DNA of 64,000 nucleotides from Eledone cirrhosa. Taxonomy: Eukaryota. Under the pieces are notes generated by a model that did no database searches, had not been told where the DNA came from, and saw only the letters and a list, made by a program, of their open reading frames with translations. The stretch is from the NCBI GenBank assembly GCA_964016885.1, contig OZ024743.1, positions 347,448,001 to 347,512,000 of the forward strand, read 5' to 3'. Positions 4,805 to 51,344 of the stretch are shown here, piece by piece. The position numbers and the translations under genes were made by a program. How positions within the stretch are numbered: position 1 is the first letter of the stretch; each line of letters begins with the position of its first letter.

Positions 4805-5160
4805 CGTTGGGCTGGCTGAAATGTTAGAGCGCTGGACAAATGTTTTGTGATATTAGTTCAGGCTGTTTCAAATCACGCCGAGATCCACACTGGCTTTCAC
4901 TCTTCCGAGATCAATATATATGAAATAATAGCCAAGAACTGGTGTCGATATACTCTTCTGCCTATAATTTACAAATATTTTGTTTAAATAAGAAACAAAT
5001 TTCATGAAGAAAATCAATTTCTATCGGTAGAGGGTCGGACGCTATGCTTTCCAGCATAGTTACGTCCCTTTACGATCCGAGTTCAAATCCCGCCGAGGTT
5101 GATTGTGCCTTTCATCCTTACGAGGTCGATAAAATAAAGTACCAGTAATGCACTGAGTAT
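4805..5160 (+). mobile_element. tRNA-derived SINE, two copies (first decayed, second 5' truncated)
   Basis: B-box GTTCAAATCC at ~5081 and core cctttcatccttacgaggtcgataaaataaagtaccag. Confidence 0.8.
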
Positions 5161-5489
5161 GCGATTGTAGATTGGAGGACACAGGATGCACTTGCCTTAG
5201 CGGTCACAGAGACAGTGAGTTTTTGTGGGCTTTCACCAGGAATTACCCTCGGATGTTTACCCCAATTCGTGATTTTGTTTTTGTTAGAATTTTTCAGTTT
5301 TTATTGTATTCGTTTCAAATTTTTTTACACGAAAAGCCCCACACCGTGTCGTCATAAGTGGTCCTTAATTGAGACATGTTTGCTTACTAAAGAAATAATT
5401 GTTATCCTTACCGTCATCACTATCAACATCATCATCATCATCAACATATATAAATAAATAAATAAGTATATATATAAATAAGTCTATAT

Positions 5490-5684
5490 ATAATTCTTTC
5501 TACTGTTGGCACAAGTCAAGCAATTATCCTAGTACATTACTGGTACTTTATTTTATCGACCCCGTAAGAATGAAAGGCAAAGTTAATCTCGGTTAGATTT
5601 GATCTCAAATTGTAAAGGGCCGTTACTCTATGCTGCAAAGCATGGCGTCCGACCCTCTACCGATTCTGCCAATCCACCGCCCTT
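5490..5684 (-). mobile_element. tRNA-derived SINE, full length
   Basis: Reverse complement of the 11489-11685 consensus; A-box TGGCAGAATCGG, B-box-like, core and tail. Confidence 0.9.
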
Positions 5685-5694
5685 ATATATATAT

Positions 5695-7428: not shown

Positions 7429-9369
7429 GCGCACGCACTCAGGATTCCAGGAAACATTTACCAAGTAGAAAGATAGTACATTCGCAATAAAGCTTCACTC
7501 AATATTCAATAATGTTGAAAGGTTTCCTATGTGGGTGGGGGACCATATGTTTTCGAACGCTTCCTTGGCTATCCGTTCTATAGACCGATTTACCAACTGG
7601 ACACCCATCATGCAAAGGGCCTGTGTGCTCACTCACATGTAAGTTTCAGTATATCTTTGTATGTGTATGTGTTTTTGCATATATATCTTGTGTCACACAA
7701 GGGTAACATTGTGTGCAATAATTTTCTGTGTATGGCTGATGTATATATTCTGTTCCTATTCCTGTTTGTTTGTGTACATATACTCTTAAAATATTTTACT
7801 CAGAGGATGAAGGCCGGCAACTTTCATAACGTCACTTACCATCAACTCTTCAAAGAGTTGTGGCATGACTGCAGAAAGTCATTCTTTGTTCGATGGCTCA
7901 ACCCAATTGCTAGACGTAGTTGATTCTCTTAAAGGCCATCAAAGCCAAATTGTTGTGTTAACACTGGTGACGGATATGTCGGAGCATTTAAGTACATATA
8001 TTTTTCATTTGTGCACTTGTTTGCATGCATATGTTTATATGTACCTATGTGGATGTCTCTGGATGTGTGCACCTATGTATGAATATTTGTGTGTTTATCT
8101 GTGTATTTCGTGTGGTTGTGATTGCCTGCGTGTATGTGTGTGACACACGACGTATGTCAAAATGCTTGTGATTGCTCCTATCAAAAACCAATCGGCTTTA
8201 ATATCTATCTAAAACACCACACCCACTAAGGCACTGCGAAATACCAACCAAAGAGACATCCCACCTCATACAATAGAAACGCAAATCTCAATCATATGGT
8301 CCTATTTCTTACATTGCTACTCGTTCCATTACTGTTGCTCATTTTGTTGCTGCTGCTGCCTTTGCTACTACTAATATAGTTGCATTGCTGTTGCTATCAT
8401 TTATTTCTGTATTTCATATTGTTGTCATCATTGTTTAATTGTAACCTTTATAACATTTCTTCTATACCGTCTGATTGCTATTTACAGGATTGAGAGTAGA
8501 TGAGTACTGTCGTCATCATCATCATCTTGATCTTCGTCATTGTCGACATCATCACCATCATCATTATCATATTTGAACAATCCAATGCAACATATTAAAT
8601 TATCAATAGCGCTTCCGTTTATATGAAGAAATTTGTTTTTTTTAGTTACATCAGTTTTCCTTTGTTGTAGTGTTTGTTTGCGTCCAAGGTTACCAAATTG
8701 CGAATGGGCAATAACAAATTAAACTTATTCGCATAGGAACATGAATCTTCGATGTATTCCCTACATTTTTGTCTATCACGTCATTTACATATTTGTTTCA
8801 TTTCTGAATGTTATAGAACATAAAAACAAACTAGAAACTATCTCCTCTATAAGACTTTAAAGCATCTACATGGAGATTAGCAACACATAAAAATGAATGA
8901 GAAAAAAAAAAAATTTAAATACCCGATATGAAGAAGCAAAATAACTGAAAGTAAGAACACTAAATTATATACTGATCTTATAATCAACGAATTAGACTAG
9001 TATTCCCTTTAAGAATGAACACTCAGACATGAAAGGGAATAGAGAAATTTCTACTGCAGGACAGTGAAGTTAATATTAAAAACTGTACATTATGCTCGAA
9101 ACAAGACAATAGTTATAAATACACCGACAATTCCAAAGATAAATTTCAATTATAAAGTAATAAACAGGATGTTAAGTGAATTGACTGGCTTTGACTGAAA
9201 GCATAGGAACTCTCTAACAGTGTTCCATACACACCATCAACATGTGATAAATATAGAACATACCTTTTTTCACAGAGACGACAGATAGAATTACTAAAAT
9301 AACAGCAGGGATGAGAAAAATACTTAGAAGAAAGTAACCAGAAAATTATTAGAGTAATAAAGAAACATA

Positions 9370-9743
9370 ATAATTGTTTCTATTTTAGGCACAAGGCTAG
9401 CAATTACACAGTACATTACTGGTACTTTATTTTATCGACCCTGTAAGGATGAAAGGCAAAGTTAACCTCGGCGGGATTTGAACTCAGATCATAAAGGGAC
9501 GTAAAACGTAATAATTGTTTCTACGTTTGGCACAAGGCCAGCAATTACAATAATTGTTTCTACTTTTGGCACAAGGCCAGCAATTATCCCAGTGCATTAC
9601 TGGTACTTTATTTTATCGACCCCGTAAGGATGAAAGGCAAAGTTAACCTAGGCGGGATTTGAACTCAGAATGGCAAGGGCCGAAATTCTATGCATCAAAG
9701 CATGGCGTCCAACCCTCTACCGATACTGCTAATTCACCGCCCT
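9370..9743 (-). mobile_element. SINE cluster: full copy 9550-9743 plus truncated copies 9370-9505 and 9510-9550
   Basis: Repeated taattgtttctac..ggcacaaggccagcaatta tails and SINE core. Confidence 0.9.
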
Positions 9744-10480
9744 CAATTACAATAATGATCTATAAAACTAATTATTCTGAAAGATAAAAAACAAACAAAA
9801 AGCAAAAGTCAAAATCACAACGTTATTAAAAAAAAAATACGAAAGAAAAATGTAGAAATATAACATTCCACAACCAGCATCCATTCACAAATATCTACAA
9901 AGATGGAAAAAATATGAAGATACTAATATTAAATACAGATAGTGCAGCTGGTATAATGAAACATCATCTCCGACTGCCTAGTTTAGGTAGGTCAAAGTAA
10001 ACACACAGGCACTATGAAGATAGCAGATATGTCTTACTGAAGAATATGCCAACGTGGAATGTTAAGAAGCGGTACAAACATGTACCAAACATGATAGACA
10101 ACAAAAGCTTGGCCATAGTCACACGAAATATGTCTGTCCAGAGTAAAAATATACAGTTATAATAAACAAGGACTGGACAGAAAATATCTGTACTTGGATG
10201 TATATCACGATCCGAAAATAAGGAAATAAGTAGGATGTATGATATGAAATTAAAAACAGTACTAATATGGCACAATATATTTAAGACCATTCATACTATA
10301 AAAAACACATAAAAATGTGCGTTGACAAATATTTCTTATATAATTGGAATCATAGCATTATTCAATGAAAAGAACCGTATTTTACGTTATTTTAATTGTA
10401 TACTCAGAATGTGCAGGAAACGAGGGCACCCCGAATTTTCATAAGCCAAAAATCAGATGGGATGAGACGGATATTTGATT

Positions 10481-11001
10481 AATTTTTGGCATAACAACTA
10501 CAGTCATATTTCGGTTTTACTGGACCGCCTCAGTGAAGCATAGTCAACATAAATTTTGTCAAGTTCTCAGAACGAGTATTAGAAACAATTTTGTTTGTGT
10601 ATGAACATTTTTTACTAATTATGTAAATTAAAATAATGACACTGGTTTCTACTTTAGGCACAAGGCCAGCAATTACCCAGTACATTACTGGTACTTTATT
10701 TTATCGACCCCGTAAGGATGAAAGGCAAAGTTAACCTTGGCGGGATTTGAACTCAGACTGTAAAGAGACGTAACTATGCTAGAAAGCATGGCGTCTGACC
10801 CTCTACCGATACTGCCAATTCACCAGGCACAAGACCAAATTTTTGGCATAACAACTACAGTCATATTTCGGTTTTACTGGACCGCTCAGTGAAGCCTAGT
10901 CAACATAAATTTTGCCAAGTTCTCAGAACGAGTATTAGAAACAATTTTGTTTGTGTATGAAGAATTTTTACTAATTATGTAAATTAAAATAATGACACTG
11001 G
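10481..11001. repeat. ~165 bp direct repeat (10481-10645 / 10838-11001) flanking a SINE
   Basis: aatttttggcataacaactacagtc...aaaataatgacactgg occurs twice with a few mismatches. Confidence 0.92.
10645..10824 (-). mobile_element. tRNA-derived SINE
   Basis: Full match to SINE consensus, reverse strand. Confidence 0.9.
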
Positions 11002-11464
11002 AAGGTTTCCTAAAGGCTGTTATCTGCAAGAAGACAATATATTGAAATGTAGACAAGTATGCTTATAGTGGTAAGCTGAAAATATCATTCAGATAATTGA
11101 AATTAAACCCTGTTCAGGAGAAACGATTAGCGTTTGTAAAAAGGATCAAGGGATAGAATTCTTATTTTTTTTCAATTAGTCGAAACTGAAATATCTTAAC
11201 TCCAGAAATGTTTCTTGTTTATTAGACCTCTTCGGTGAAGTGTTGTCAAATAAATGAAAGAGGAAAAGTATGCTTTCCTATCACACTGTTCTTTTAAGGA
11301 AAATAGACACCGCGAATTAAAAGGCCACAAATATTTCCTTCCTAACAAATAAAAAAAAAAAATTAAGATACTTACCTCACCAACAGAGAGAATTACATCT
11401 CTCAAAATATTTTTGTTCATCGTATTTTACGCCTTTACTCCTCAATTATTCTTCTTTGATTCTA

Positions 11465-12770
11465 CCATTATTATTATTATTATTATCTAGGGCGGTGGAT
11501 TGGCAGTATCGGTAGAGGGTCGGACGCCATGCTTTCCAGCATAGTTACGTCCCTTTACGATCTGAGTTCAAATCCCGCCGAGGTTGACTTTGCCTTTCAT
11601 CCTTACGGGGTCGATAAAATAAAGTACCAGTAATGCACTGGATAATTGCTGGCCTTGTGCCTAAAGTAGAAACAATTATTATTATTATCTTTGGTTAACT
11701 TTGCCTTTCATCCTTATGGGGTTCATAAAATAAAGTACCAGTAATACACTGGTAATTGCTGGACTTGTGCCAAAAGTAGAAACAATTATTATTATTATTA
11801 TTAGTGGGGTCGAAAGGGCTGTGGATTGGCAGTATCGGTAGAGCGTCGGACACCATGCTTTGCAGCATAGATTTACGGTCCATTACTGTCTTAGTTCAAA
11901 CCCCACCGGGGTTAACTCTGCCTTTCATCCTGACGGGGTCGATAAAATAAAGCACCAGTAATGTACTGAGGTTCATTTAATCGACTTTCCCTCCTCCCAA
12001 ATTACTGGCCTTGTGTCTATTATAGAAATCATTATTATTGGGGTCGATTAAGGGCGGTGGATTGACAGTATCGGTAGAGGGTCGGACGCCATGCTTTGAC
12101 GCATAGTGTTACGGTCCTTGCCATTCTGAGTTCAAATCCCGCCGAGGTCAACTTTGCCTTTCATCCTTACGGGGTCGATAAAATAAAGTACCAGTAATTT
12201 AAAGGGTAATCGCTGGCCTTGGGCCAAAAGTAGAAACACTTATTATTGGGGTCGATAAAATAAAGCCCCATTAATGCACTGGATAATTGCTGACCTTGTG
12301 CCAAAGTTAGACACATTATTAATATCATAAATAATTGTTTCTATTTTTGGCACATGGCCAGCAATTACGCGGTACATTACTGGTACTTTATTTTATCGAC
12401 CCCGTAAGGATGAAAGGCAAAGTTAGCCTCGGCGTGATTTGAACTCAGATCATAAAGAGACGTAACTCTATGCTTCAAAGCATGGTGTCTGACTCTCTAC
12501 CGATACTACCAATCCACCGCCCTATTAATATCATAATTAATGTTATTAATGCAGGGCCGTGGATTAGCAGTGTTGGTAGAGGGTCGGGCGCCATTCATTG
12601 TAGTATAGAGTTACGCCACTTTGCGGTCTGAGTTCAAATCCCCATGGTTAACTTTGCCTTTCATCCTTACGAAGTCGATAAAATAAAGGACCAGTAAAGT
12701 ACGGGGATAATTGCTTGCCTTGTGCTAAAAATAGAAACATTATTATTATTATTATTATTATTATTTTATA
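11465..12770. mobile_element. SINE array: + copies at ~11489, 11693 (partial), 11815, 12052, 12247 (partial), 12554; - copy 12330-12523
   Basis: Consensus gggcggtggattggcagtatcggtagagggtcggacg..gagttcaaatcccgccgagg..gtaccag..ggccttgtgcctaaagtagaaac(ATT)n; A-box TGGCAGTATCGG, B-box GTTCAAATCC. Confidence 0.92.
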
Positions 12771-15938: not shown

Positions 15939-16254
15939 AAAAGTTCTACTTAAATTGTTGGGATACAACAAGCAAATATTTTTATAACTAATATAAAGCA
16001 CTCAACAAATAATTGGAGTACAAATACGATATTAACAAATGGAAACTATATTTATAAAACCATATTTATTTCATTATACATATGTTAAGGACACCAAGTT
16101 AAATTATGGTGTGCTTTCATCAGATAAAATATAATATAGAGCAGTTTTATAAATAAATATTGACATACCCTTAAAGAATGCAACCATTACTGTTCGAAGC
16201 TCCCGGGAGCTTACAACAGTAATGGTTGCATTCTACATACATAAATAGTTATTT

Positions 16255-16790
16255 ATACGTACATATATATATGTGTGCTTGTATGTATATATATATATAT
16301 ACATACTACTGTACGTCTGTATACATATATGTATGTACGTATGCATACTTATATTTAAGTAACAGCCGTACTAAGAGTGGGAAATGAAATTTCGTTTCAT
16401 TTTTTCCGTTTATCGTTTTCGTTGCACCCGGCCGATTAACCCACTCGATATGCAAATTAGGCTACTCAGCCGTTAATATGCATAAGGAAAGTATATACTT
16501 TCAGACGTTCAATCATCTGGCAGGAAGGTATACGTTGCTGACGATAGTTAATAAACTTGAAACTAGTACAGCGTTCCTTTGTCAGTGTTGAACAAACGAG
16601 CAACGATGGTTGCTAGACACTACGGCTTAATACGGGATGTTTGTTTACAAACACACCGAGCATTATAATAGATGTTCGGTGAATCCATACGTACATATAT
16701 ATATATGTGTGCATGTATGTATATATATACATACTACTGTACGTCTGTATGCATATATATATGTACGTATACATACTTATATATATATAT
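16255..16790 (+). mobile_element. Non-coding ~432 bp HHR-bearing unit, ~1.2 tandem copies (retrozyme-like / non-autonomous PLE), family A
   Basis: atacgtacatatatatatgtgtgc...catactactgtacgtctgta repeats at 16255 and 16687; homologous to 58160-58975. Confidence 0.8.
16532..16574 (+). ncRNA. Minimal type I hammerhead, intact
   Basis: acgttg-CTGACGA-t agtt aata aact t-GAAA-ctag-TA-cagcgt; stem III palindrome ACTAGT; GUA site. Confidence 0.85.
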
Positions 16791-16810: not shown

Positions 16811-17352
16811 ATCACTGATGAAGGACTAATTGTATTCATATATAACCCATGTGAAACACGCAGCACTCAATTCTTCTCATATTTATATATATATATTTTT
16901 CCTCAGCTGCGTTTGTCTGTTTCTTTCTTAATGCTTCCCCCCTCTCTCTGTATCTCTCACCTTATTTCGCCCCCTCTGTCAGTCATACTTTCTCTCGACT
17001 GCGTCTTCCTCGCACTTCCTCTCAGTCACTCTCTGCTTCTCCACCCTCTCACTTCCTCCCGTTTGGCCTGCGTGGGGGTCCTTTCTCAGTCACACCTCAC
17101 CCACGTCGGATGGTGTGTATATCTCTCTCGCCCTTGAAATTCACCCAGCTTAAGCTGAATAGATTTCATGTGCTTGTTTCTTCCTATCTTTCCGTTGCTA
17201 TACCATGTTTGTGTGTTTACTTGTCTCGCTCGCTTTTCGCTATATTACTTGTCCCAATAGCTTTATTTAGCTATTGCTCGCACCAACTGGAGGTGTATGA
17301 TTTTTAAAGCGATGGAATACCAATGAAAGTTGGAAAATCACTGATGAAAGAC

Positions 17353-17362
<10 letters not shown>
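16811..17362 (+). mobile_element. ~527 bp unit with terminal direct repeat beginning atcaCTGATGAa(g/a)gactaatt, family B
   Basis: Repeat at 16811 and 17337; homologous inverted copy at 18325-18905. Confidence 0.75.
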
Positions 17363-18088: not shown

Positions 18089-18324
18089 GACTTGATTTTA
18101 TATAGAAATTACTTCTACAGAACTAGAACTGATTAATTCGTATTAAATCATGTAGACATTCCTCGAAATTTCATCCGAATAAAACAGTTCTAATTATGTA
18201 CAAGTTATTTATACATGAAAAAAAAATTGAATACTCTCTACCAACGTATTGCAGTCACCTCCCGATCCCTTCGGCAATCTACCTATATAAACACTCACAC
18301 ACACCTATGGATATATATATATAT

Positions 18325-18905
18325 ATATGAGAAAAATGGAGAGCTGCGTGGTTGCACATGGGTTACATATGAATAAAATTAGTCCTTCATCGGTGATCTT
18401 CCAACTTTCATTGATATTTTATCGTTTTAAATATCATATACCTCTAGTTGGTGCGAACAACAACTAAATAAAGTTATTGGGACAAGTAAAATAGGGTGAA
18501 ATGAGCGAGACATGTAAACAAACAACGATGGTATTTGCAACGGAAATATAGGAAGAGAAAAGTACATGATATCTGTAATCTTAAGCTTGGTAAATTCATG
18601 TACGAGAGATACACACCACCCGACATGGGTGAGATGTGAGCGAGAAAAGGATTTCACACAGGTCAAACAGGAGGAAGTGAGAGAGGGGGAGAAGCAGAAA
18701 GTGAGTGAGTGGAAGTGTGAGGAAGAGACCAGCCGAGAGAGAGTGTGACTTGCAGAGGGGGTAAAAAGAAGGTGAGAGATACAGAGAGAAGGGAATCAGT
18801 AAGAAAGAAACAGACAATCGCAGCTGAGCAAAAAATATAAATATGAGAAAAATGGAGAACTGCGTGGTTGCACATGGGTTACATATGAATAAAATTAGTC
18901 CTTCA
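18325..18905 (-). mobile_element. Family B unit, ~516 bp period, inverted relative to 16811-17362
   Basis: atatgagaaaaatggaga.ctgcgtggttgcacatgggttacatatgaataaaattagtccttcat at 18325 and 18841; body homologous to 16811-17362. Confidence 0.8.
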
Positions 18906-19105: not shown

Positions 19106-19225
19106 GTGAAAGAGTAATTCGCTGGGAAAAAATGTAAAAATAGAGCTAAAGGCGAGCGAGGCAACGCACCCCGCGCCATATATATATATATAGCGACGAT
19201 GAATTAGTTTTGCGAGGTTTTTTAT

Positions 19226-21160
19226 ATGAAATCGTGTGTCGAAACAAATATTGTTATACTTGACAAATATTGTTATACAGTCGACGACCCGACAACGGGA
19301 CCACCAACAAGACCCGTATGCGGAGCTAATATAGCTAGCAACTACAGGATCTCCTACTTTCTCTCAATGGTTATACGCCCCATAATCAAGATGTCCCAAG
19401 ATGTATGTGACAGTACAGAGGACCTCCTCAGCATAATCAGTGAGTGCAACAAAAACAGGAGCCTATCCAACTGCATAATAGGCAGCATGGATGTGGTGTC
19501 ACTGTACCCATCCATTAACATTGATTTTGCTGTGAAAAGATGTGTGGAGATGATCATTGAGAGTGAGGTGGAGTTCTGCGACGTCGACACAGACGAACTG
19601 GGCCTCCTACTTAGACTTACCTACGACACTGACTACCTAGACAGCCATGACCTTATATGTTTCTGCCCTAGTAGACCTATAAGAGGTAGACCCCCCACCA
19701 TAACCTCAATGGCAAAAAAGACTCCCATGGGAAGGTGGATTGGGTGGACCAAAGCTATACGGACCCCCCAAAACAATGATCAGGTAAGAAAAATGGTCGC
19801 ACATGCAATAGGGGCTAGTATCAAAACTACCCTAAAGGGCTACATATTTAAGTTCAATGAGAAAATCTACACCCAAAATGAGGGAGCAGCCATCGGCGTC
19901 AGCATAGCTGGTGATGTTGCCAACCTTTTCATGGTATGGTGGGAAAGGAGACTTAAAGATCTCCTTAATGAAAGCTCCATAGACCTCATCATGTACTCTC
20001 GTTATGTAGACGATATGAATATAGTTATAAGAACACCCCCACTAGAGAGAACTAACAAGCTTGATTTAGAACGTAGCACGATGGAAAGCATCCAGCAGAT
20101 AGCTAATTCCATACACCAGAGTATAACTGTAACTATCGACTTCCCTTCCAAACACCCTAACAATAGACTACCTGTATTAGACAGAGAACTCTGGATTAAC
20201 ACTATAGACGAGAGAGCCCAAATTCTCCACCCACACTATGCTAAACCCATGGCCTCCAAATACTTGATACTAAAAAACTCAGCAATGTCCAGTAGTGCTA
20301 AGTTTAATATTCTGATCGCAGATTTGGTACAAGTGATGAAGAATGTGTCCCGCATGTGCGACCCAACAGAAATGGAAAGACACATCCAACACTTCATCAA
20401 CCGCATGCAGTTCTCTGGCTACAACCAAAGAGACAGAGTCAGAGTATACGAAGGAGCCATGGAAAAGTATAAGACCCTCATAGAACTGGACATGAAAGGA
20501 ATTTGCCCATTATACAGGAGCAAATCATGGAATAGCTTAGATAGGGCTAGACATAAGATAGGGAAAGCCACATCATGGTACGACAACCAGAGATACCAGA
20601 GTGTCATGTTTGTGGACGCCACCCCTGGAGGGAAATTAGCTAACCAGTGTAGAAAGGCCATGAGAAAGACCCACTTAAAAATAAAGGTGGTAGAAAAGCC
20701 AGGAACCACCATAAAATCCCTGATCAGCAAAACCTACCCTTTTAAGAAAACCCACTGTACCAATAGGAAATGTATCATATGTAAGGTGAACTCCCGGATA
20801 AACTGTAAAACTAGAAACGTAGTCTATAGCATAAGATGTACAGAGGGTACTTGCAGAAACATGACAACAACATACATAGGTGAGACAGCTCGTAGCATAG
20901 GTGAAAGGATAGACCAACACTGGGGGGAACTAAAAGGACGAAAAAACGTGTCAGTACTATACGAACATGCTAGACAACAACATGACGGTAACATAGACAA
21001 CATAGAAATTAGAATAATATCTAAACATAGAAATGTCCCAGCAGATAGGCAAATCAGAGAGGCCAGTGAAATAGAAATTAGAAGACCAAAGCTAAACAGA
21101 AAGAATGAATGGAATAACAACATCACCCAAACAAACAACACTGACCTAAGAGAAGTATAA
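19226..21160 (+). CDS. Penelope-like retroelement polyprotein: RT + Zn-knuckle linker + C-terminal GIY-YIG endonuclease (5' truncated; homology starts ~19280)
   Basis: TRPVC, SMDVVSLYPSI, GAAIG, RYVDD, LPVLD, YAKP; CTNRKCIIC..C; NVVY..YIGET.R...R..QH, EHARQQH, E, LN; no internal stop. Confidence 0.9.
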   Translation: MKSCVETNIVILDKYCYTVDDPTTGPPTRPVCGANIASNYRISYFLSMVIRPIIKMSQDVCDSTEDLLSIISECNKNRSLSNCIIGSMDVVSLYPSINIDFAVKRCVEMIIESEVEFCDVDTDELGLLLRLTYDTDYLDSHDLICFCPSRPIRGRPPTITSMAKKTPMGRWIGWTKAIRTPQNNDQVRKMVAHAIGASIKTTLKGYIFKFNEKIYTQNEGAAIGVSIAGDVANLFMVWWERRLKDLLNESSIDLIMYSRYVDDMNIVIRTPPLERTNKLDLERSTMESIQQIANSIHQSITVTIDFPSKHPNNRLPVLDRELWINTIDERAQILHPHYAKPMASKYLILKNSAMSSSAKFNILIADLVQVMKNVSRMCDPTEMERHIQHFINRMQFSGYNQRDRVRVYEGAMEKYKTLIELDMKGICPLYRSKSWNSLDRARHKIGKATSWYDNQRYQSVMFVDATPGGKLANQCRKAMRKTHLKIKVVEKPGTTIKSLISKTYPFKKTHCTNRKCIICKVNSRINCKTRNVVYSIRCTEGTCRNMTTTYIGETARSIGERIDQHWGELKGRKNVSVLYEHARQQHDGNIDNIEIRIISKHRNVPADRQIREASEIEIRRPKLNRKNEWNNNITQTNNTDLREV

Positions 21161-23146
<1,986 letters not shown>

Positions 23147-30265: not shown

Positions 30266-33200
30266 ATGGCGACCGTTGTGGTCAGTGTCCGATAATTGGA
30301 CGTGTGTAATTACGGCTTACATGAAGGCAACATACCATATATTGGAAAAAGTTGAGCTACATTACGCGGTAAGATTACATACAATAATTCTACATAAGTG
30401 TTTGAACTGTAAGTGTGTTGTAAAACACCTATTTATATGAACGATACATACACTTATGATATATGAACGATACATACACTTTAACATATAAATGCAACGT
30501 TGTTATATTACATTTATAAAGAAATATAAAAGTAACGTTTTCGATTCAGAAACAAAAATATAAGTGTTTGAACTGTGAATGTTGTGAATATGTTGTAGAA
30601 CACCTATTTATATGAATGATACATAAACTTTAACATATAAATACAGCATTGTTATATTATATTACATTCGTAAAGGAATATACTAAGTAACGGTTCTTTT
30701 TGTTCTCGATTCAAACGATTCAAGAACAACGTTTAAAACACAGTTGTAGAATTAAAAACTAACTGAAAAGAAATATTACCCAAGCTGTGAATAACTTTAA
30801 ATTTGATTCTGACAGAACTTTGTCGTAACTTTTAAAGAAGATCATCGACTATTTAAAAAAAATAAATACAAAATATTAGTGAATAGACGAACTCATCATG
30901 GCAAAAAGTACAAGTCTCCTTCGACCAAATCGCAATTACAACCGTTGTATACAGTGGAGCTACGAGCTTAACAAAGAATTATATGAAGCATACAAACAAT
31001 CTGAACCCCAAAAGTTCGGTTTTATGCAAAGGCTAAAAACTTTATGGAACTCCAAACACCCAGAATTAGACTTTTCTCCAAAGCATCTAAATGAACAGGC
31101 AAAACGTATCATTAGATGTAAATTGATATATCTAACGGAATCGAGTGATACTACAAATACAGCCCTTGTAGACAACCACCCCACCTCCACTGACAGACAA
31201 AGAGAATGGCCGGCTAAATCTAACAGTGAACAGCTCACCAACAATTTTGCTGAAATCCATCCCACTTCCACTGAAGAACAGCGAGAAAGGTCAGCTGACT
31301 CTAGTAGTAATTGTCACCACATCAACAACGAGGCTGCAATTCATGACTCTACTGAACAAACAGAGCACCAAAAACTTGTGGGCACCCTACAAGTGATATG
31401 GAACGATATGTTTCAAGAGATACACAGCCTTAATGTGAGTGACAGACCATACAACACTAGAGTCAGTAAAGAACCCACTAAATTGGAATTGGAAGCGGTG
31501 AACGAAATAGCTGGCAATTATCTGAAGGCTATACGATCTAAAGGTGTAGAAACGACATTTGAAACGCTCAATGTTTTGTTATATGTTTCAGCTGTCACAT
31601 TGCTATCATATAACACACATCTAAAACCACGCAATCAAGATACAAACAGAAAGCCTGAACCAGCGTGGATGCGAAATTTAAAAACCAAAATGTTGTCCCT
31701 GAGACGAAGTATCTCACACATCGCAGTCGTTATGAAATGCAACATAGAGAGAAACTTCACACGACACCAGGAAGACCTAAAGAAAAAGTTAGAGAGACGA
31801 TTTGGAGATACCAAATTTAAAACTTTGAACTCCAAATTACACCAGTTGAAACAACAACTCACAGCTACAACAGAAAGACTAAAATATAAGTCAAAAGCCC
31901 ATAAACGACAAGTGCTAAATAGATTGTTTGCCAGAGATCCTAAATCAGTTTATCGCAGCTTCGGTGGCAAAAGCTCAATCCCTGTAAACGACACCCCTTC
32001 AAAAGAACAGGTTGAGAACTACTGGAGATCTGTATGGGAAACGGATGACGGATTCAACAGACAAGCTAATTGGCTAAAACAACTGGAACAGGACTACTGC
32101 CAACATGTCCAGACAAAACAATATGACATAGATGGGTCAATACTGGAAACAGCTCTACAGAAAATGTCGAATAGGAAATCGCCAGGCCCAGACCTCATTA
32201 CAGGATACTGGTTGAAGAATTTCACTTTCTATCGGCAAGATCTCATACGGCTGTTTACAGAAACCATTAAGGGCACACAAGAACTGCCCAGATGGTTATC
32301 AACTGCCACTACTCTCCTCATTCCCCAAAATAGCCAAACCACCCTTGCTAAAAATTACCGCCCAATTGCCTGCCAAAACATCATGTATAAATTATATACT
32401 GGGTGCCTTAACCTGTTCTTACAGGATCACTGTGCTACCAACAACATCATAACACCTGAGCAAGCTGGTGGAAAGAGGGAGGTGTGGGGTTGCATAGATC
32501 ACCTACTAACTAACAAAATGATTCAGGAAAAAACAACAAAGAATCGCAGAAACATGACTGTCGTGTGGCTGGACTATCAAAAAGCATTTGATAGTGTACC
32601 TCATGGGTGGATTATTAAGGCTTTACAGTTAGCTAAAGTCCCACAACCATTAGTAGCTGCTGTTGAACGCCTGACCAAGAACTGGTACACCAATTTGATC
32701 CTTAGAGGTGAGAAGGAGCAGGTTAAGACTGATAGGATACATTACCAGAAGGGCATCTTTCAGGGTGATAGCTTGTCAGTACTACTCTTCGTTCTCTCAC
32801 TGAATCCACTATCTTACCTACTCAGGAAACAAGGTGGACAAAGAAGTGGGCCCAGAAGTATCTCCCATCTTTTCTTTGTTGATGACCTGAAGTTGTATGG
32901 GCCAAATATCAATGACATCAAGAAACAATTGGACCTCATTACACAATTTTCAACCGACATCAAAATGAAATTTGGTGAGTCCAAGTGTGCATATTTGGCA
33001 GTAAAACGTGGAAGAGCTGTGCCCTCCTCTAGAAATCTAGATATGAACGGCCTGACAATACAACCTCTGCAGTCAGGTGACAACTACAGATATCTTGGAC
33101 AGGATGAGAATGTCAGATATGATGGACCCATAAATAAGGAGAGAACCAGAACTGAATACCTCAGAAGAGTAAAAAAAATATGGTCATCAGAACTGTCAGC

Positions 33201-34487
33201 ATACAACAAATACATTGCCCACAATACCTATGCTGTGCCAATTATAACGCCAACATTTGGCCTACTGAACTGGTCATTGCAAGAACTAAGTGAGATGGAT
33301 GTTAGAACTCGTAAACTTCTCAGTGTTACTGGGAACTTTAACATCAATGGTGATGTGGATAGGCTATACTTCTCACGCAAGGAAGGTGGCCGGGGTCTAA
33401 AATCAATATTAACAACATATGAGACCCGGATAGTAACACTGAAGCAACACCTTCAACAGAGGAAAAAGGTTGGCGACCATCTTGCTCAGGTTTATGAGCA
33501 TGAAAAAAGAAATATCATTAGAATAGCGACTGATCTGGAGGAGAGATATGGAATAAAGCCTGATATAAATCTCTCACCCAGAGAAATCGGAAGATCCTAT
33601 TCAATGTTCAAACAAGAAAAAAAAATTGACCAATTTACAAAGAAAGTTGTGCATGGATACTTGAGGCGTAAAACACAGACCATAGAGGGGATAAACCACT
33701 CAAAAAGCCTGGCATGGAGTTCCGACAAGTTTATGACATCACACCTTGAGGGATATCTCTATGCAATACAGGAACAAGAACTCCCTACCAAATATCTGCT
33801 GCACAAAAGAGGAGGGCCAGCAGCTGACAATAAATGTAGGCTATGTAAAACAAAGATCGAGGATGTAAGCCACATTGTTGCCAGCTGCGAAAGAATGTCA
33901 TCTCGCTACTACCTCCCCACGAGACACGATGGGATAGCTAGAACTATCTGGAACGCACTTCGGAAAACAAAATTAACAACAAACGAGGAAGAATATATTG
34001 AGACAGATGGCACTAAGGAATACTGGTGGAACCTGAAAATAAAAACTGCCACCAAATTAAAGCACAACCGGCCTGATATTGTAGTTTGGGACCACACATT
34101 GAAAACGTGTTCTGTTGTGGAGATCAGCTGCCCACTTGATGTAAACGTTGTCAGAAAAATACAGGAGAAGGAGGACATCTACGGACCATTGATGAGGAGC
34201 TTACAAATCCAGTATCCAAGATACACCTTTAGCTTCATACCCATCATTATTGGTGCTACGGGTTATATACCAACCCGCTTGGACCAAAGTATGACCGAAC
34301 TTGGATTTGCGGATAAAAAGCGCAGCTCCCTAATTCATAGTCTACAAATGGCTGCGATAGCTGGCACCTTCAAAATATGCAAAACATTCTTGCGATTCAA
34401 GGGATGACAATTTCTTTTCTTTTACAACCTTGCCACCAGGAAGGTGGCCGGTCAAAAAAATATACTCGAAATTAAGAGAAAGAGAAA
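30266..34487 (+). mobile_element. Full-length R4/Dong-clade non-LTR retrotransposon
   Basis: ~630 bp 5' UTR, single intact ORF, short 3' UTR with hairpin gccacc aggaa ggtggc; 27 bp duplication 30091-30117 / 34488-34514. Confidence 0.88.
30898..34407 (+). CDS. RT + restriction-like endonuclease polyprotein (1169 aa, uninterrupted)
   Basis: KSPGPD, NYRPIAC, LDYQKAFDSVPH, GIFQGDSLS, FVDD, YRYLG; CRLC..HIVASC Zn knuckle, RHD, RPDIVVWD, VEISCP (PD-(D/E) RLE). Confidence 0.93.
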   Translation: MAKSTSLLRPNRNYNRCIQWSYELNKELYEAYKQSEPQKFGFMQRLKTLWNSKHPELDFSPKHLNEQAKRIIRCKLIYLTESSDTTNTALVDNHPTSTDRQREWPAKSNSEQLTNNFAEIHPTSTEEQRERSADSSSNCHHINNEAAIHDSTEQTEHQKLVGTLQVIWNDMFQEIHSLNVSDRPYNTRVSKEPTKLELEAVNEIAGNYLKAIRSKGVETTFETLNVLLYVSAVTLLSYNTHLKPRNQDTNRKPEPAWMRNLKTKMLSLRRSISHIAVVMKCNIERNFTRHQEDLKKKLERRFGDTKFKTLNSKLHQLKQQLTATTERLKYKSKAHKRQVLNRLFARDPKSVYRSFGGKSSIPVNDTPSKEQVENYWRSVWETDDGFNRQANWLKQLEQDYCQHVQTKQYDIDGSILETALQKMSNRKSPGPDLITGYWLKNFTFYRQDLIRLFTETIKGTQELPRWLSTATTLLIPQNSQTTLAKNYRPIACQNIMYKLYTGCLNLFLQDHCATNNIITPEQAGGKREVWGCIDHLLTNKMIQEKTTKNRRNMTVVWLDYQKAFDSVPHGWIIKALQLAKVPQPLVAAVERLTKNWYTNLILRGEKEQVKTDRIHYQKGIFQGDSLSVLLFVLSLNPLSYLLRKQGGQRSGPRSISHLFFVDDLKLYGPNINDIKKQLDLITQFSTDIKMKFGESKCAYLAVKRGRAVPSSRNLDMNGLTIQPLQSGDNYRYLGQDENVRYDGPINKERTRTEYLRRVKKIWSSELSAYNKYIAHNTYAVPIITPTFGLLNWSLQELSEMDVRTRKLLSVTGNFNINGDVDRLYFSRKEGGRGLKSILTTYETRIVTLKQHLQQRKKVGDHLAQVYEHEKRNIIRIATDLEERYGIKPDINLSPREIGRSYSMFKQEKKIDQFTKKVVHGYLRRKTQTIEGINHSKSLAWSSDKFMTSHLEGYLYAIQEQELPTKYLLHKRGGPAADNKCRLCKTKIEDVSHIVASCERMSSRYYLPTRHDGIARTIWNALRKTKLTTNEEEYIETDGTKEYWWNLKIKTATKLKHNRPDIVVWDHTLKTCSVVEISCPLDVNVVRKIQEKEDIYGPLMRSLQIQYPRYTFSFIPIIIGATGYIPTRLDQSMTELGFADKKRSSLIHSLQMAAIAGTFKICKTFLRFKG

Positions 34488-35130: not shown

Positions 35131-35475
35131 GAGAGACAGGAAATAAGAAATGTTTACAATATTCATAATAATTGTAACTATTTGGTTGGTTTTCAAAGCC
35201 TTAGGGAAATTTCAAATTTGAAAATAAGTAAGCCACAATCAAGACAACTATAGATATAATTGATCATTATAAATAATATATAAATAAGTCGGTTAAAAGT
35301 AACCTGGAGACGGAAAGTATTGGACAGTCACGTCTACGTGAATTGGGTTACGTCAGCTTGGTAGTTGTATAATACAGTATGGAAAAGTATAAGGATAAAA
35401 TTTGGATAGTCGTTAGCTAATTGTCAGTGTCGGTAGACGTTAGGACTAATTGTATTGCATTGTTCCACTATCTAA

Positions 35476-35670
35476 GGGCAGTGGGTTGGCAGTATCGGTA
35501 GAGCGTCAGACACCATGCTGTACAGCATATAATTATCGCCCGTTGCATTATGAGTTCAAATCTCGCTGAGGTTAGCTTTGCCTTTCATCCTAACTCTGTC
35601 CGATAGAATAAAGTACCAGTAATGCATTGGTGTAATTGCTGGCCTTGTTCCAAAAGTAGAAAGCAATTAT
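35476..35670 (+). mobile_element. tRNA-derived SINE
   Basis: A-box tggcagtatcgg, B-box gttcaaatct, core and tail. Confidence 0.88.
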
Positions 35671-35711
35671 TCCGCTATCTAGCTCCTTGCGAGTTCAAAA
35701 TCTGACTATGT

Positions 35712-40230: not shown

Positions 40231-41455
40231 TTCCTTGAATCTCAGTCATTGATGTTGGTTAACTGGAAAGTCCGTTGGATTGAATATCAAGCCACTACCT
40301 GCAGCCTCAGATATTCAGGACGTATCGGAGGGTTCTTGCTGTTCCAAGCAAGCATGCCTTTTGAAGCGTTCCAAAAAGCGTGAAGGGGCCGATTTTCTTT
40401 AACCATCCCTGGAAACTTTTGGAGATAGTCCCCAGTGCGCCTATGACAATCGGGATCACTTTGACTTCATGGCAGTTCCAAATCCTTTTCACCTCCCACT
40501 TTAGGTCCTGGTATCGGTTAATTTTCTCCCTCTCCTTCTCTTGCACTCTCGTGTCGAAAGGGCAGGCCACATCGACAATCAGACACGATCTTTTTTCTTT
40601 GTCCACAACCACCAGGTCAGGTCTATTGTGTTCCAGTTTTTTGTCCGTCTGTATCCTAAAATCCCACAGCACCTTCACCTGATTGTTCTCCATCACCGCC
40701 TCTGGCCTATGCTCATACCATTTCTCAGAATGTGGTAAATTGTTTACTTTGCACAGGTGCCAGTGGATCACCCTGCCCATCACATCGTGTCTCCATCCCT
40801 TATAGTGGGTCTGGGCTAGGTGTTTACACTTGGACACAATGTGAGCCACAGTCTCCTCTCTCTCTCCACAGATCCTGCACAGTGGGCTAGCCTCCTCCTT
40901 GTAAATATGGTGCTTCAACCACTTCGTTTTGAGGGCCTGCTCCTGCGCAGCCATTAGCATTCCTTCTGTAGCCTTTTTGAGGTCTCCTCTTCTCAACCAT
41001 TTCCATGTCTGTGGATCTCTAAATTCAGTTTTCTCAAAGAAGGTACTATGAAGGGATTTTCCCTTAAGGCTGCTCTTCCTCCTTGATGTTATTTCCTCCT
41101 TGGACATCCCCTGGCCTACTGTCCCCTCCTTCAGTACAGTTCTGAGCATTGGCTCCTTACTATAGGTCACGTATTTGTATAGGTTGTTTTTCTCCATCTG
41201 AACCCAGTCCTCTATGCTGATAAGACCTCTTCCACCCTCAGATCTCCTTAGGTAGAGTCTATCGACATCACTCCTCTTGTGGAACATGTTGTAGATAGTC
41301 AATAGCTTCCTAGTCTTCCTATCCATTTCTTTTTGTTCAGCAACATTCCATCTCAGAATTCCCGCACTGTACCTAATAATAGACACAGCTCGGGAATTTA
41401 CTGCGCTTATGGCATTTCTGCTGTTCAGATGTGACTTCAATACGCTCCTTACTAT
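40185..41455 (-). mobile_element. R4/Dong-clade element, 5' truncated (ORF 40307-41479)
   Basis: RLYLRRSEGGRGL, AAQEQAL, CRIC..ETVAHIVSKC, RHD, RPDLVVVD, VDVACP; 3' tail (AAT)n. Confidence 0.9.
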
Positions 41456-41849
41456 TGTTAACTGTATATAAGTGCACATACATTGTTATCTGAAAAAGAC
41501 ACCCAAAAAGATTGGGGCCTTGAGCCCAAAATTTAAACTTTTATAATTATCAAACAAAATTTTTTCTTTGAAACATCATGGCTGACTCAGAGTCACTCCT
41601 TTCTCACAAACTAACACCTCACACCGACACCACCATTGTAAATATTACTACGTTTGCCAACACTAAAAAAAATATAAGCAGTAGCAATATTTTAAATTTG
41701 TCTCAGGCAGACATTCATTTCCCGCCATTACCAATGACTGCAGGTGTTAAAGCCGCCACCACCACCACCACCACCGCGACAACCCCCCACCACCACCACC
41801 GCGACAACAGAAACAAAAGAAAAAAAATAAATTAACTCGTGATATCGAA

Positions 41850-43531
41850 ATGAATTTATACAAATTGAACTCTTCCACACCGAACACCACTGACACCACC
41901 ACCACCACAACTGAAACAAAAATTAATAATAACAAAAATAACGATAACAACAACAGCAACAATGACATTAAGAAAACCATCCTGAGTTTTGCCAGAGTAG
42001 CAAAACAGTGCGAAACATTTCAGGTAACTCAGGAGGAATTACTAGAAGCCAAAAAAATGGTAAAGAAAGATGGGTACAGGGTTAGCCTCTACCCCACCTA
42101 ATAAAATGGAGCATCGGCGCCTATGCACCGTGTCTTATCGAACAATTAATATAAAATCGCGCCGAGTGGAATGGGCATCCGAGTCCCATATCCAAAAAGC
42201 TTTGGGGACATGTGTGGGCAAAAAAAACCCACATCAGACGTGGGCAGAAATATGGAACCGTGGACGTGTTCTTTGAAACACCACAGGAGGCTAGAGAACA
42301 CGCCATGGCCCCATTAAGAAGTGACGACTTCACACTCGTCCCAAGCTATTGTGTCCAGAGACTTGTGAAGATCAGGGTGATCCACGTTCCACCGGCCATC
42401 GAAATTCCCTGGCTAATGGTTGCCGTCCTCGCCGACATCGAGGCCAACAACAAGATAATTGAAATAGCGAAAGAGAAGCAGGAGAACTGGTCCGGATCTG
42501 GGATGGAGCTCCTGATCCAAGCGGACCAAAAAAGAATTGAGGAGTTCCCAGAGGTAATAGACCTCACTGACGGCTGCCACCTCACCGTAATCGTTGAGGG
42601 TAGAAGGCCTAGGTGTGTCGTTTGTGGTGAAGGAACCCACCTAAGGTTTTTCTGCCCTCAGGCTAAAAGGTTGAGGCCACATCTCCTACCCACACCAGTG
42701 ACTCAACCATCAACACCACCAGCAGCAGAGTTGGTAGCAATAACTGTAGCAGCAACAACAGAAGAAACTGTAACAGCAACAACCCCAGCAACAGTAGCAA
42801 AACCAACACCACCACCACCCAACGCTTCAGAACTAGCACCAGCGCCTACACCATCCACCGCGCCACAACCAATACTAACGCCTGTGGAGGATTTTCCACT
42901 CCCCGGCCTATCACAACTGGAGACAGATTGTGACGACGAGGAGTGGGAAACGGTATCAGGAAAAAAGAAAAAAAGAAACAAAAAAAGATAAAATTCTCTT
43001 CCTTCCCTCTCCAAAAACAAAATACAGAGGGAAACATATAAACTATCAAACAAAAAAGTTAGGACAGATATACCACCATCCACACCAGCACCACCAACCC
43101 CATCACCCCAAACACCAAGACCATCACCATCATTAACCCCAACACCACCATCACCTACACCACAAATGTCACCAAAAAGCGAAACAGAAACAAACCCACA
43201 ACAAACGCAAACAAAACAAAACAACCAAAACTATACACACTACATAGCATTAAATTTGAACAACAACCAATTATTACACTACATGCAACACAACACCAGC
43301 ATCACAGAAAAAGACTACACAACAACCCAAAAGATCACACCACCTCCACACATACAAATCACTCGCATCACACAGAAAACATACATGACACTAAAACAAA
43401 CATTTCCCAAAGACATCGGAGACTTCCAACAAGCACTCTCCAGGAGGATTTATAAGGACATCCTTCCTGAGGAGGCCACAAGCAGTGAAAAGGAGGGAGA
43501 AACCATCCTTCCTCTACAAGAAGTAAGGTGA
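41850..43531 (+). pseudogene. Tx1-type ORF1 (gag-like, CCHC knuckle), stop and frameshifts
   Basis: EGRRPRCVVCGEGTHLRFFCP, Pro/Thr-rich region, EWETVSGKKKK. Confidence 0.8.
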
Positions 43532-43565
43532 GTGGTCTTTCCCATCTTTTCCACTCCATTTCAAC

Positions 43566-46500
43566 ATGATCTCACTCAGAATAGGCAGCATAAATGCGGG
43601 TGGCTTGGGGTGGTCATGGAAGCAGGGCCACCTGCTCAACAACCTCAGGTCACTAAACATAGATGTAGTGGCCATCAGTGTGACCAGAGTCTCCGAAGCA
43701 CGGGCCTTCGCACCGATCTTCGGCGGCTACGATGTGTACGCATCACCCAGCCGTCCGGGATCGGGGGGAGGAGTTGCTGTGCTTTTTCGGAGAGGTTTGG
43801 ATCTTGCCATACGGGCCATCTTCCTGGACCCAGAAGGTAAGTTGGTGGTGCTGGACGTGACCAGCGGAGACGGGCAAGCTTTCTGGTTAGTGGCTGTCTA
43901 TGCCCCGACAGGTGCAGGGTGGCCTGATTTCTTTCGGCGTTTGGAGACCTTTCTTGGAACGTCCCGCTCTTTAGTGTTAGTTTGGCGACTGGAACGGGAT
44001 CTTAGATGCACGCTGGGACTGTGTGGGATTAGTAGATAGGGGAGGAGGGCGCAAGAGTCTAACCAACCTGCTCAGGCGTTTTGAACTGTCTGAGAGGTAC
44101 CGATTGGATTTCCCGAATGTGCCAATGTGGACTTGGACAAATCGCATAGGTTCATCCAGATCATATCTAGATAGAGTATTTTGTAGGGAAATAGAGAGGT
44201 CTAGCATAGGCTGTCCACAATTCAAGATAGTCAGCTACACGGACCACAAATTCGTGATCTGTGTGCTTGACTTAGATATGCTTCATAGACGAGGACCCGG
44301 CTACTGGAAGCTAAACGCGTCCTTACCAGCGCGCAAAGCCTACAGAGACCGGATTAGCGAACTAGTTAAGCGAGCGTTGATGGGGGGCCATCGTCAACAA
44401 CAAGTGGTGGTTTGCTCTGAAAAGAGCAATTAGAATAGAGTCCATTAGGTTTAGTAAGGCTTTAGCAATAGAGAAAAATAGAGCAGAGCGAGAATTAGTT
44501 AGAATATTAGACGAGGCGCTTAGCAAAGGCATCGCGACCGACGTACTTGCGGCAAAATTGGCCCTTGACCAATTCTACAATACAAAGCACGAAGGCTGCG
44601 TTGTCAGAGCTAGGGTGTGTGCTCTCAGACACGAGGGGACGAAAGCCGTTCAATGGGCCCGAGTGGCGGAGGCGCGTCGTGGCAACAAAGCCACGATCCG
44701 GTCTTTGGTGGACCACGTCGGGCGCATGCTACTCGGTCCCGGGCAAATGTGTGAAGCTTTTCAGCGACACTTCGAACAGCTGTTCGGGCGCAGTGGCGGG
44801 CCAGATCGAGGGATGGACTTTAGTGTAAACCTCTACGGACTGCCGCGCTTCTCGGTCACTGAGGCGGAGTGTTGCGAAAAGCGGATAACAGCCGCTGAAG
44901 TACGGGAGGCAATGACTAGCTGCACAAGGGGTAAATCGCCTGGTTTGGATGCTCTGCCCTATGAACTTTACGTACAGATGCCAGACTTGTTCGGAGGCCT
45001 TTTGGCGGACGTCTTCTGCAACTGGCAATAGAACGGGAGAATTCCCAGCTCTGTGAACCGAGGAGATGTGGCGCTGCTGAGAAAGGATCCGAACAAGGGG
45101 GATAACATAGATAATTTCAGGCCCATAACACTGCTAAACACAGAATTCAAGATTTTGGCCAAGGTGCTAGCAAAGAGGTTGGCGCTTGTCGTTGGTGGTC
45201 TGGTGGGAGAGGCGCAGACGTGTGCCATTCCCGACAAATCTATCCACGACAACCTCCACCTCATGCGATACATCGTAGAGAGGGTAGCTAGGAACCTGTC
45301 ACGGGTGGGTCATTGATCAATTTAGATCAGTCGAAAGCTTTCGATAGGGTCGACCATCGTTACCTAGCGGCAGTCCTGAGGGCGGCTGGTTTTGGGCTCG
45401 TCTTCAGAGGCTGGATCGCTGCCATGGACAGCGACATCTGCTCTGTGGTGAGAATGAACGGTCACCTTTCGGAACCGTTCAACATCATGCGCTCGGTCCG
45501 CCAAGGATGTCCCCTCTCGTCCCTCTTGTACGTATTGACTCTCGAGCCATTACTGCACAAACTGGAGACGTTGAGGGGCGTCCCGCGCGAACAAGGATGC
45601 GGAAGATCCGTGTCACCATATGCGGACGATGTCACCGTAGTGGTGTCGAACGCCAAACACATCGAGGCGATCGGCACTACACTAAGAGAATACGAAGCGG
45701 TGACAGGAGCAATGATCAACCAGGAAAAGTCAGTGGGCCTGCAGCTCGGCACCTGGAGAGGCAGGTCCATGCCGTCCAACAGCGTCGTCGGGCGCTGGAC
45801 GGACGGACCAGTTAAATTGCTAGGGGCCTGGTTCGATCCGGACCTCCATACGGACAAAAACTGGGACGAGGTGACGAGCAGGGTGGCATCTCTCACCCAG
45901 AAATGGTCCGAGAGGAAGCTATTCCTGAAAGGTCGAGCGGAGGTGGCTAACGCGTACATCGCGTCCGTCATCTACTACCGCCTGACCGTCGTACCTTGTC
46001 CTAAGCCCCCCCTGAGTGCGCTGGAGCGTTTGCACTTTCGCTTTTTGTGGAAGGGACGCGCTCCGATGGTCAGGCGGTCCATCTGCTGTCAACACCCGCT
46101 ACGTGGAGGGCTGGGCTTGCCGTGTCTGATGATGTGCAGACACGCGCTCAGGCTACGACATCTCCACCTCTTCCTCGACGGTGATCAGGGGTGGTCGCCG
46201 TTTGCTAGACGCGTCTTTCCCCAGCTCGTCTCTTTGACGGAGGTGCAGTCCTGGGTCAAGCGAAGACCGAGAGGGAGCGCTTGGAGACTGGAATGTATTC
46301 AGGCGCTCACAGCCCTCGACCACTCGGTCAATGTGATCGGTGGAAACTCTACCTTGGCATTCTATAGGGGATTAGTGGAGGGGAAGAGTGACGACGTACT
46401 TGGAGAAACTCTGGCGTCGACGAAAATCAACTAGCCAATCTCTTCGGAAGGACTTTCGGGCCGGGGCCTATGGACAACTTCCAGAAATCCCTGGCCTGGC

Positions 46501-47225: not shown

Positions 47226-47285
<60 letters not shown>

Positions 47286-47289
47286 CTAT

Positions 47290-47480
47290 GGCGGTGTATT
47301 GGTAGTATCGGTAGAGGGTCGGACGTCATGCTTTGACTTAAAGTGTTGCGGCCCATTCCATTCTGAGTTTAAATCCCGGCTAGGTTAACTTTGCCTGTTA
47401 TCCTTACGGGGAAGATGAAATAAGGTACCAGTAATGCAGTGGATAATTGCTGGCCTTGTGCCAAAAGTAGAAACAATTCT
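47290..47480 (+). mobile_element. tRNA-derived SINE next to the Tx1 tail
   Basis: SINE consensus match. Confidence 0.88.
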
Positions 47481-51283: not shown

Positions 51284-51344
51284 TTTCATTCTGATGACTG
51301 AAAGCAAATTTTGTTTGCTTTCAAGAAACCACTGGTAAATGAAA
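51284..51344 (+). ncRNA. Hammerhead ribozyme, intact (identical to 48505-48565)
   Basis: Same sequence on plus strand; 7 bp stem I, 10 bp stem II, GUA site. Confidence 0.9.

Follow-up and report, generated by a model that had tools for sequence, protein, structure and literature searches.

The 64,000-nucleotide stretch of Eledone cirrhosa DNA analysed here (the window) carries, at two loci, a non-coding repeat unit of 420-432 nt that bears one type I hammerhead ribozyme (HHR) motif per unit and is arranged at both as partial tandems. Locus A is a single arm of what we term family A (16255-16785, plus strand, 531 nt, subfamily 1), truncated at its 5′ end and terminating 3′ at a fixed site, site A, beyond which lies (TA)n; its 1.23 units of 432 nt bear out a first-pass annotation of the sequence, which had described about 1.2 head-to-tail copies with a period of about 432. 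For locus B, where the same annotation gave about 1.3 copies (period about 427) and an inverted partial copy at 58160-58975, we measured 1.31 units of period 427 in a 561-nt minus-strand arm of subfamily 2 (58160-58720), whose 3′ end is a second fixed site, site B, running into (TA)n, together with an inverted 263-nt arm on the plus strand (58717-58979) that stands back to back with the first via an overlap of about 4 nt. The 3′ end of the shorter arm falls inside a TA-rich hairpin and is likely an end of the A kind shortened by slippage. The two loci are 83-87% identical, and the 432-nt period was not reported by TRF. An imperfect palindrome of about 110 nt (16148-16257) lies immediately 5′ of the 5′ end of locus A.

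Within the unit, a long TA/TG-rich hairpin is predicted directly before end A (16255-16341, plus strand), with a similar hairpin in the sister family described below. Between the fixed 3′ ends A (about 16352-16357) and B (16413) lies a ‘tail’ of about 59-61 nt (16355-16413, plus strand), inside which a U-rich hairpin is predicted; past 16413, 60 contigs of the public run X1 switch to (AT)n. By prediction only, the unit folds more stably than its shuffles (z -7.7), the circular fold reaching -133.6 against -96 +/- 6 for shuffles, with a similar branched circular fold in both families.

Several other repeats share the window. Directly 3′ of locus A is a different family of about 530 nt (16813-17358 and 18320-18900), present as a partial tandem with inverted copies, which begins with a CTGATGA motif beside (TA)n and is unrelated in sequence to either family studied here. 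Two more inverted pairs of HHR-like motifs (48520-48558 with 51291-51329, and 54905-54928 with 55644-55667) are possibly other back-to-back insertions of the Penelope-like element (PLE) type. A dispersed repeat of about 200 nt, which we take to be SINE-like, recurs in many copies, often as inverted pairs (5022-5689, 9363-12757, 35469-35671 and 47254-47490), and LINE-type reverse transcriptase (RT) frames occupy 30883-34407, 40307-41485 and 42155-46985, the 1,174-aa one being open throughout.

The hammerhead motif of locus A (16523-16582, plus strand) has a stem I of 6 bp (16532-16537 with 16569-16574), a stem II of 4 bp and a stem III of only 2 bp, capped by the palindromic sequence ACUAGU, with its core at 16538-16568 and the predicted cut after GUA at 16568; the duplex of the palindrome is valued at -6.8 kcal/mol. 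At locus B, the core of the shorter arm is intact (58807-58837), with the predicted cut after GUU at 58837, and that of the minus arm (58432-58462) is broken by a change of G12 to U. The earlier description of one HHR and no ORF per unit therefore holds for the motif and for coding capacity, the longest ATG-initiated ORF of the circularised unit being 60 aa on the plus strand and 52 aa on the minus strand, but not for the ribozyme of that minus arm. At least two consecutive intact HHRs are found at L078, L151, L152 and L153-155, elsewhere in the genome, the loci of the window having at most one intact HHR per arm. Across the 3.0-Gb genome, the family-A core pattern has 12,927 exact matches against 0 for its reversed control. 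Of the 155 Rfam matches at E<=1, the 150 that were listed include no hammerhead for family A, the scan otherwise yielding microsatellite-driven miRNA matches and a sub-threshold HH9 match for the sister family at 51464-51535.

The pairing of the ribozyme has been maintained through sequence change. The two subfamilies of family A differ in stem I (U.G to G.U), at position 7, at the base of stem II and in the cleavage triplet, and the stem I covariation claimed previously (ACGTTG/CAGCGT versus ACGGTG/CATCGT) proves genuine, corresponding to this swap. Taking these subfamilies and the sister family together, 90.8% of cells are paired and double changes occur in 7 of 13 pairs, in a set of 26 rows (21 distinct) whose relatedness means that the figure is not a probability. 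The companion claim for stem II fared less well: among 10,998 matches, the first 100 that were listed include no AGTT/AACT, 98 having AGCT/AGCT and two a single change, and in run X1 both positions show the common allele at >99% of depth, so that AGTT/AACT looks like two decay mutations private to the locus A copy. Contigs ending near 16570 were considered as evidence of cleavage and rejected, since they coincide with a polymorphic site at 16571.

A sister family, B, is represented in the window by a copy at 51375-51812 (plus strand), a colinear homologue with a unit of 466-470 nt that ends at its own B site into (TA)n and has its HHR core at 51482-51512. The alignment of family B with family A is colinear (score 209 against 30 +/- 5 for shuffles), with a similar predicted branched fold. 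As pairing is kept by compensatory change between families that are, judged by eye, about 60% identical, the ribozyme is under selection. The stem II base of family B is the canonical G-C; family A lacks the canonical 10.1-11.1 pair, having U.U or C.A instead, for which reason its cleavage may be slow. Genome-wide, the family-B pattern has 9,683 matches, the first 100 listed all being family B, and the two families together account for about 22,600 exact HHR cores. Family B is much younger than family A and includes arrays of up to 31 units bounded by PLE-type ends.

How these units enter the genome can be read from their ends. For family A, 170 windows were taken from the genome, namely 60 best-score matches, 90 pattern matches from the start of contig C1 (the last 60 of which were chosen because their end motifs are intact) and 20 multi-copy regions picked by hand; after merging into 127 loci, and leaving out three that lie in one long array, 124 loci with 227 arms remained. 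Site A was defined as phase ~92-105 and site B as phase ~159, the latter including alignments that stop at the T-run just before it. Among 223 visible 3′ ends, 84 lie at site A, 81 at site B and 58 elsewhere, 25 of the last group in the TA-rich hairpin before A. The two end windows, about 60 nt apart, thus hold 165 of 223 3′ ends while making up about 5% of the unit, and TA repeats adjoin 147 of those 165. The 60 loci chosen without selection for end motifs gave the same pattern, and visual inspection identified about 41 termini among the first 100 matches listed for site B and about 25 among the first 100 listed for site A. The 5′ ends, by contrast with these fixed 3′ ends, are scattered over all phases.

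Of the mapping that the first-pass annotation had proposed, the genome-wide count has yielded 12,927 core matches, and the phases in the 124 loci free 5′ ends and two 3′ sites. Its argument from circular permutation is not supported as stated: phases are free at the 5′ ends but not at the 3′ ends, for which random permutation is rejected by the two fixed positions. Linear monomers produced by hammerhead cleavage can likewise be rejected as template, as ends do not pile up at the cut: only 4 of 227 5′ ends and 1 of 223 3′ ends fall near it (phase 310-320). The arms that end at A or B are longer than one unit in 88 of 165 cases and cross the predicted cut site in 130 of 165. We interpret the fixed 3′ ends as two internal priming sites and the 5′ ends as ordinary truncations.

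The arrangement of arms into inverted pairs obeys a strict rule. Where both ends are visible (n=65), 36 pairs have one A and one B end, none has two of either kind, and 29 have an unclassed end (p=3e-11). In family B, where the same two kinds of end lie about 70 nt apart, 25 inverted pairs are A+B, one is B+B and three have another end. In family A, the 5′ phase of one arm does not depend on that of its partner (the two lie within 30 nt of each other in 9 of 65 pairs, 9.2 being expected), which excludes a fold-back origin of the inverted arm and indicates that the second arm was primed separately. At the junctions, the arms overlap by 1-6 nt in 28 cases, are joined bluntly in 5 and via filler in 22, and overlap for longer in 10.

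Such features have precedents among the PLEs. In their anatomy, the 5′ arm is inverted and just one of the two ends has a tail (Craig 2021, 10.1101/2021.04.23.441226; Arkhipova 2013, PMC3846280), and in vitro work on a PLE describes two internal RT start sites at the boundaries of the tail, AT-rich DNA being nicked on both strands, each of which is then extended (Frangieh 2024, PMC11167929). The hallmarks of EN+ PLEs, namely 5′ truncation, partial tandems and an inverted 5′ arm, are all present in the insertions of the unit, and the pairing of one end of each kind, with the two fixed ends, is the PLE ‘tail’ signature. PLE involvement, as already suggested in the first-pass annotation, is hence more strongly founded than originally argued, through the two fixed ends and the 36 of 36 classifiable pairs, and we regard PLE-type mobilisation of the unit as very probable. 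The possibility that the unit is instead a satellite spread by DNA-level processes (unequal exchange or extrachromosomal DNA circles), with an incidental ribozyme, draws on the 2- and 4-unit periods seen in L151, L152 and L153-155, which point to local DNA-level expansion, but it leaves the fixed 3′ ends, the free 5′ ends, the (TA)n targeting and the one-of-each pairing unexplained, all of which match the coding PLE of the window. DNA-level dispersal of the unit is already largely refuted, and we consider this explanation extremely improbable.

That coding PLE is a 5′-truncated element on the plus strand (19190-21633) with an open frame at 19208-21160 whose product combines an RT with a CxxC linker and, at its C-terminus, a GIY-YIG-like region. 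Its designation as GIY-YIG and as Neptune/Nematis-type comes from motif reading and Craig's description as opposed to a Pfam match or a tree. The element has an inverted tail-bearing stub (19190-19270) and a tail-less 3′ end that runs into (TA)n. Its family has many near-identical copies in the genome, with open frames of up to 1,218 aa, and is apparently young and active; it targets (TA)n, has tails of ~56-58 or ~45 nt, and its inverted pairs combine one tailed and one tail-less arm in 13 of 13 resolved cases, with one further pair unresolved. In this family (the window copy and L251-L258), the tail lies within the first ~28 codons of the ORF and an atypical HHR-like motif is found at ~21396-21440. 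A similar tail is found in a second Neptune-like family, whose protein identity to the first is 58-65%, and a PLE remnant at 30-1868 of the window combines pieces of a GIY-YIG-like frame with a long UTR and an HHR-like motif (1818-1840) just before (TA)n. The closest named relative of a PLE protein of the window is labelled Octopus vulgaris (67% identity).

Whether one of these elements is the parent of the unit is a separate matter, and one on which the first-pass annotation had allowed that the unit might prove to be only the pseudo-LTR (pLTR) of a coding PLE, recognisable by a fixed phase. The phase is indeed fixed at the 3′ end, but the unit was not found as a pLTR. A reading as the pLTR of a coding PLE that the genome still contains, or as what an internal deletion has left of one, with the copies as truncated PLE ends, accords with the PLE-like character of every insertion hallmark and has a parallel in Xenopus, where 24 of 57 retrozyme families are reported to match known transposable elements, mostly PLE termini (10.64898/2026.07.22.740005). 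Against this, head-to-tail units run through every phase, and among 92 free 5′ ends none is preceded, at a fixed phase, by non-unit sequence that recurs at another locus, the 5′-flank matches that were found being unit-to-unit, one duplicated flank and one unrelated repeat. The UTRs of three PLE families of this genome, the extent of the comparison and to that degree a point for the remnant reading, show no significant similarity to the unit, the families being that of the window's coding PLE, the second Neptune-like one and that of the PLE at 30-720 (N1, N2 and the 30-720 family), with a single high score being traced to an adjacent family-A arm. Of 30 loci with odd ACUAGU-type HHRs, five belong to neither A nor B, and these have no PLE ORF match. 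A coding parent was thus not found via 5′ flanks, UTR alignments or odd HHR variants, one PLE family having been searched genome-wide, and we judge descent from a coding PLE still present very unlikely. The donor of the enzyme is a PLE by insertion signature, with no sequence match in the families compared, and the unit has a tail whose sequence is unlike the tails of both Neptune-like families; that the Neptune-like family of the window or its sister is the donor can be put forward tentatively, as somewhat less than an even prospect. With no RT/GIY-YIG ORF, the unit is to be classed as a non-LTR retrozyme and not as an autonomous PLE, in line with the retrozyme-like label of the first-pass annotation.

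The form of the RNA template is less readily determined. Non-LTR retrozymes are described as HHR tandems that produce circular RNAs, with PLEs as candidate helpers (PMC7229834; PMC7761336), and copies of more than unit length had been read earlier as fitting a circle. Such copies are indeed present, but an uncleaved tandem transcript gives the same outcome (PMC11167929). This is the substance of the main competing explanation, in which PLE two-site priming is the same but an uncleaved linear transcript, read through from an existing tandem array, serves as template, the HHR being weak or dispensable and no circle being formed. It has a direct precedent in PAc, the one PLE studied in vitro, for which uncleaved RNA is reported as the dominant template, with insertion still occurring with HHR mutants (PMC11167929). 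The non-canonical stem II base of family A is compatible with it, whereas the HHR pairing kept by compensatory change between A and B speaks against it.

Allele sharing within insertions bears on both possibilities. In family A, paired arms share 13 of 141 rare alleles (42 loci; null mean 1.2, maximum 5 in 500 draws) and tandem neighbours 18 of 91 (32 loci; null 0.7), and the subfamily of the two arms agrees in 42 of 42 clear pairs, four more being ambiguous. Most rare alleles of family A are unshared and divergence within insertions is star-like (median 3.6-4.0%), the private alleles being consistent with decay after insertion. Sharing within insertions could also arise by gene conversion after insertion.

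The younger family B is more informative. Among 19 new insertions, six have a marker that runs through every pass, or almost every one, of the two arms (96C twice, 357G, 57T, 137A and 428T), and 376A marks a seventh, short insertion. Two of these markers, 57T and 137A, were counted genome-wide: 137A has seven genome matches, five being all passes of L329 and the remainder one dimer elsewhere, and 57T has 13, seven being all passes of L325 and six being single copies on other haplotypes. In run X1, 57T is nearly absent. No longer homogeneous source array for either marker exists in this assembly, which favours copying from monomer to multimer, although one assembly can miss a source. It is this insertion-wide spread, with no equally long homogeneous source in the assembly, that weighs most directly against a linear transcript, since only monomer-to-multimer copying would let a new allele fill a whole array in one step. 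The two markers favour the monomer circle and are better evidence for it than more-than-unit length.

Other arrays lean the opposite way. Several young family-B arrays are heterogeneous or mosaic (arr5.74, arr14.04, C3:113.97 Mb, L323, L324 and L327), and at L322 the variant 447T occurs at the same pass in both arms, a register match that fits a multimeric template; both observations sit well with a linear transcript. An array of 18 identical units (C1:30.83 Mb) was considered as proof of a circle and found not decisive, its haplotype being 100% identical at >=5 loci, so that a homogeneous linear source is available. Arrays of 49 or more units also exist as possible sources. These include the family-A satellites L153-L155 (C1:51.77-51.79 Mb; 49+ units with a 4-unit period); there are also ABAB dimer arrays of family A (L151 and L152) and a variant family-A array with a spacing of ~500-540 nt (C3:12.27-12.29 Mb). 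A reading of the ABAB arrays as products of a heterodimer circle is unsupported, as most units of the two alternating types in L151 have 3-4 private alleles in common. The 2- and 4-unit higher-order periods of the older A arrays are best read as later local expansion, the timing of which we infer. On balance, a linear read-through transcript without a circle is rather unlikely as the template, and a monomer circle is, in our estimate, the fairly probable main one.

Our preferred reading is therefore of a high-copy, ORF-less non-LTR retrozyme that is mobilised by PLE proteins at two priming sites, probably through a monomer circle of ~430 nt, a composite that we hold with moderate confidence. 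Weak palindromic helix III is reported to permit cleavage in multimers and not in monomer circles (Cervera 2014, PMC4209133). By analogy with that work, transcripts that read through tandem copies would cleave themselves in the double-hammerhead form, which is needed because a 2-bp palindromic stem III is too weak in the monomer. The released monomer would then be ligated into a circle, which should be stable given the weakness of a lone stem III. A GIY-YIG PLE protein, the presumed enzyme, would nick a (TA)n tract on each strand, and one of the two would serve as primer at site A and its partner at site B, which lies ~60 nt downstream, as the observed ends and their pairing suggest. Each cDNA would be of random length, often running past one unit and across the ribozyme junction, as seen in the arms, and two cDNAs would be joined by microhomology or filler, as at the junctions, into back-to-back arms. 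Some long arrays may later expand locally into the observed 2- or 4-unit higher-order repeats. In a more far-reaching version, the retrozymes would be active PLE parasites, a PLE dimer priming both (TA)n strands on a single ~430-470-nt circle and rolling for up to a dozen or more turns; we put its chances at slightly below even.

Comparison with known systems shows features of two groups in the unit. Like metazoan non-LTR retrozymes (PMC7229834; 10.64898/2026.07.22.740005), it forms ORF-less tandem units with one type I HHR, is AT-rich and strongly self-paired, and occurs in thousands of copies, from monomers to long arrays, in a genome that also contains PLEs. Its unit of 420-432 nt is slightly above the range given for invertebrate retrozymes (170-400 nt). 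Like EN+ PLEs (PMC3846280; 10.1101/2021.04.23.441226; PMC11167929), it shows partial tandems, 5′ truncation, a 5′ arm in inverted orientation and a tail confined to one of the ends, with two internal RT start sites, microsatellite targets and an HHR upstream of the tail. Unlike those elements, it has no RT/EN ORF and no coding parent was found, its inversion junctions are mostly not palindromes, and its tail measures ~60 nt in family A and ~70 nt in family B as opposed to 30-40 nt. The newt and axolotl satellite-2-type dimeric hammerheads (PMC7229834; PMC4209133) resemble it in their weak palindromic helix III, with a double-hammerhead fold expected, but differ in that the unit occurs mostly as dispersed insertions of 1-2 units with precise PLE-type ends; cleavage here is predicted. 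Caution on activity comes from Xenopus, where 8 of 9 predicted retrozymes are reported not to have cleaved in vitro (10.64898/2026.07.22.740005).

The helper enzyme of animal retrozymes and the circular template are both open questions. A 2020 review states that no motif in the repeats points to the helper (PMC7761336), and vertebrate retrozymes have been tied to PLEs by co-occurrence and pLTR homology (10.64898/2026.07.22.740005). In the retrozyme texts surveyed, PLEs are implicated through the type of HHR, through co-occurrence and through pLTR homology, whereas here the link comes from fixed ends, tails and paired arms; in the main texts covered by the survey, we found no description of such ends, tails or paired arms for retrozymes, nor of cephalopod retrozymes. 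With ~22,600 HHR cores, the two families form a sizeable repeat class in this genome, and their insertion ends point to PLEs as the helper. The strict rule of one tail per pair, with independent arms, suggests an in vivo role for the two RT start sites described in vitro (PMC11167929). If a PLE dimer does roll on a circle, these insertions would provide direct evidence from the genome that PLEs mobilise animal retrozymes and that the template is circular, an intact candidate for the enzyme being encoded there too, and the coexistence of a very young family B with a young coding PLE that retains full-length ORFs makes the question directly testable.
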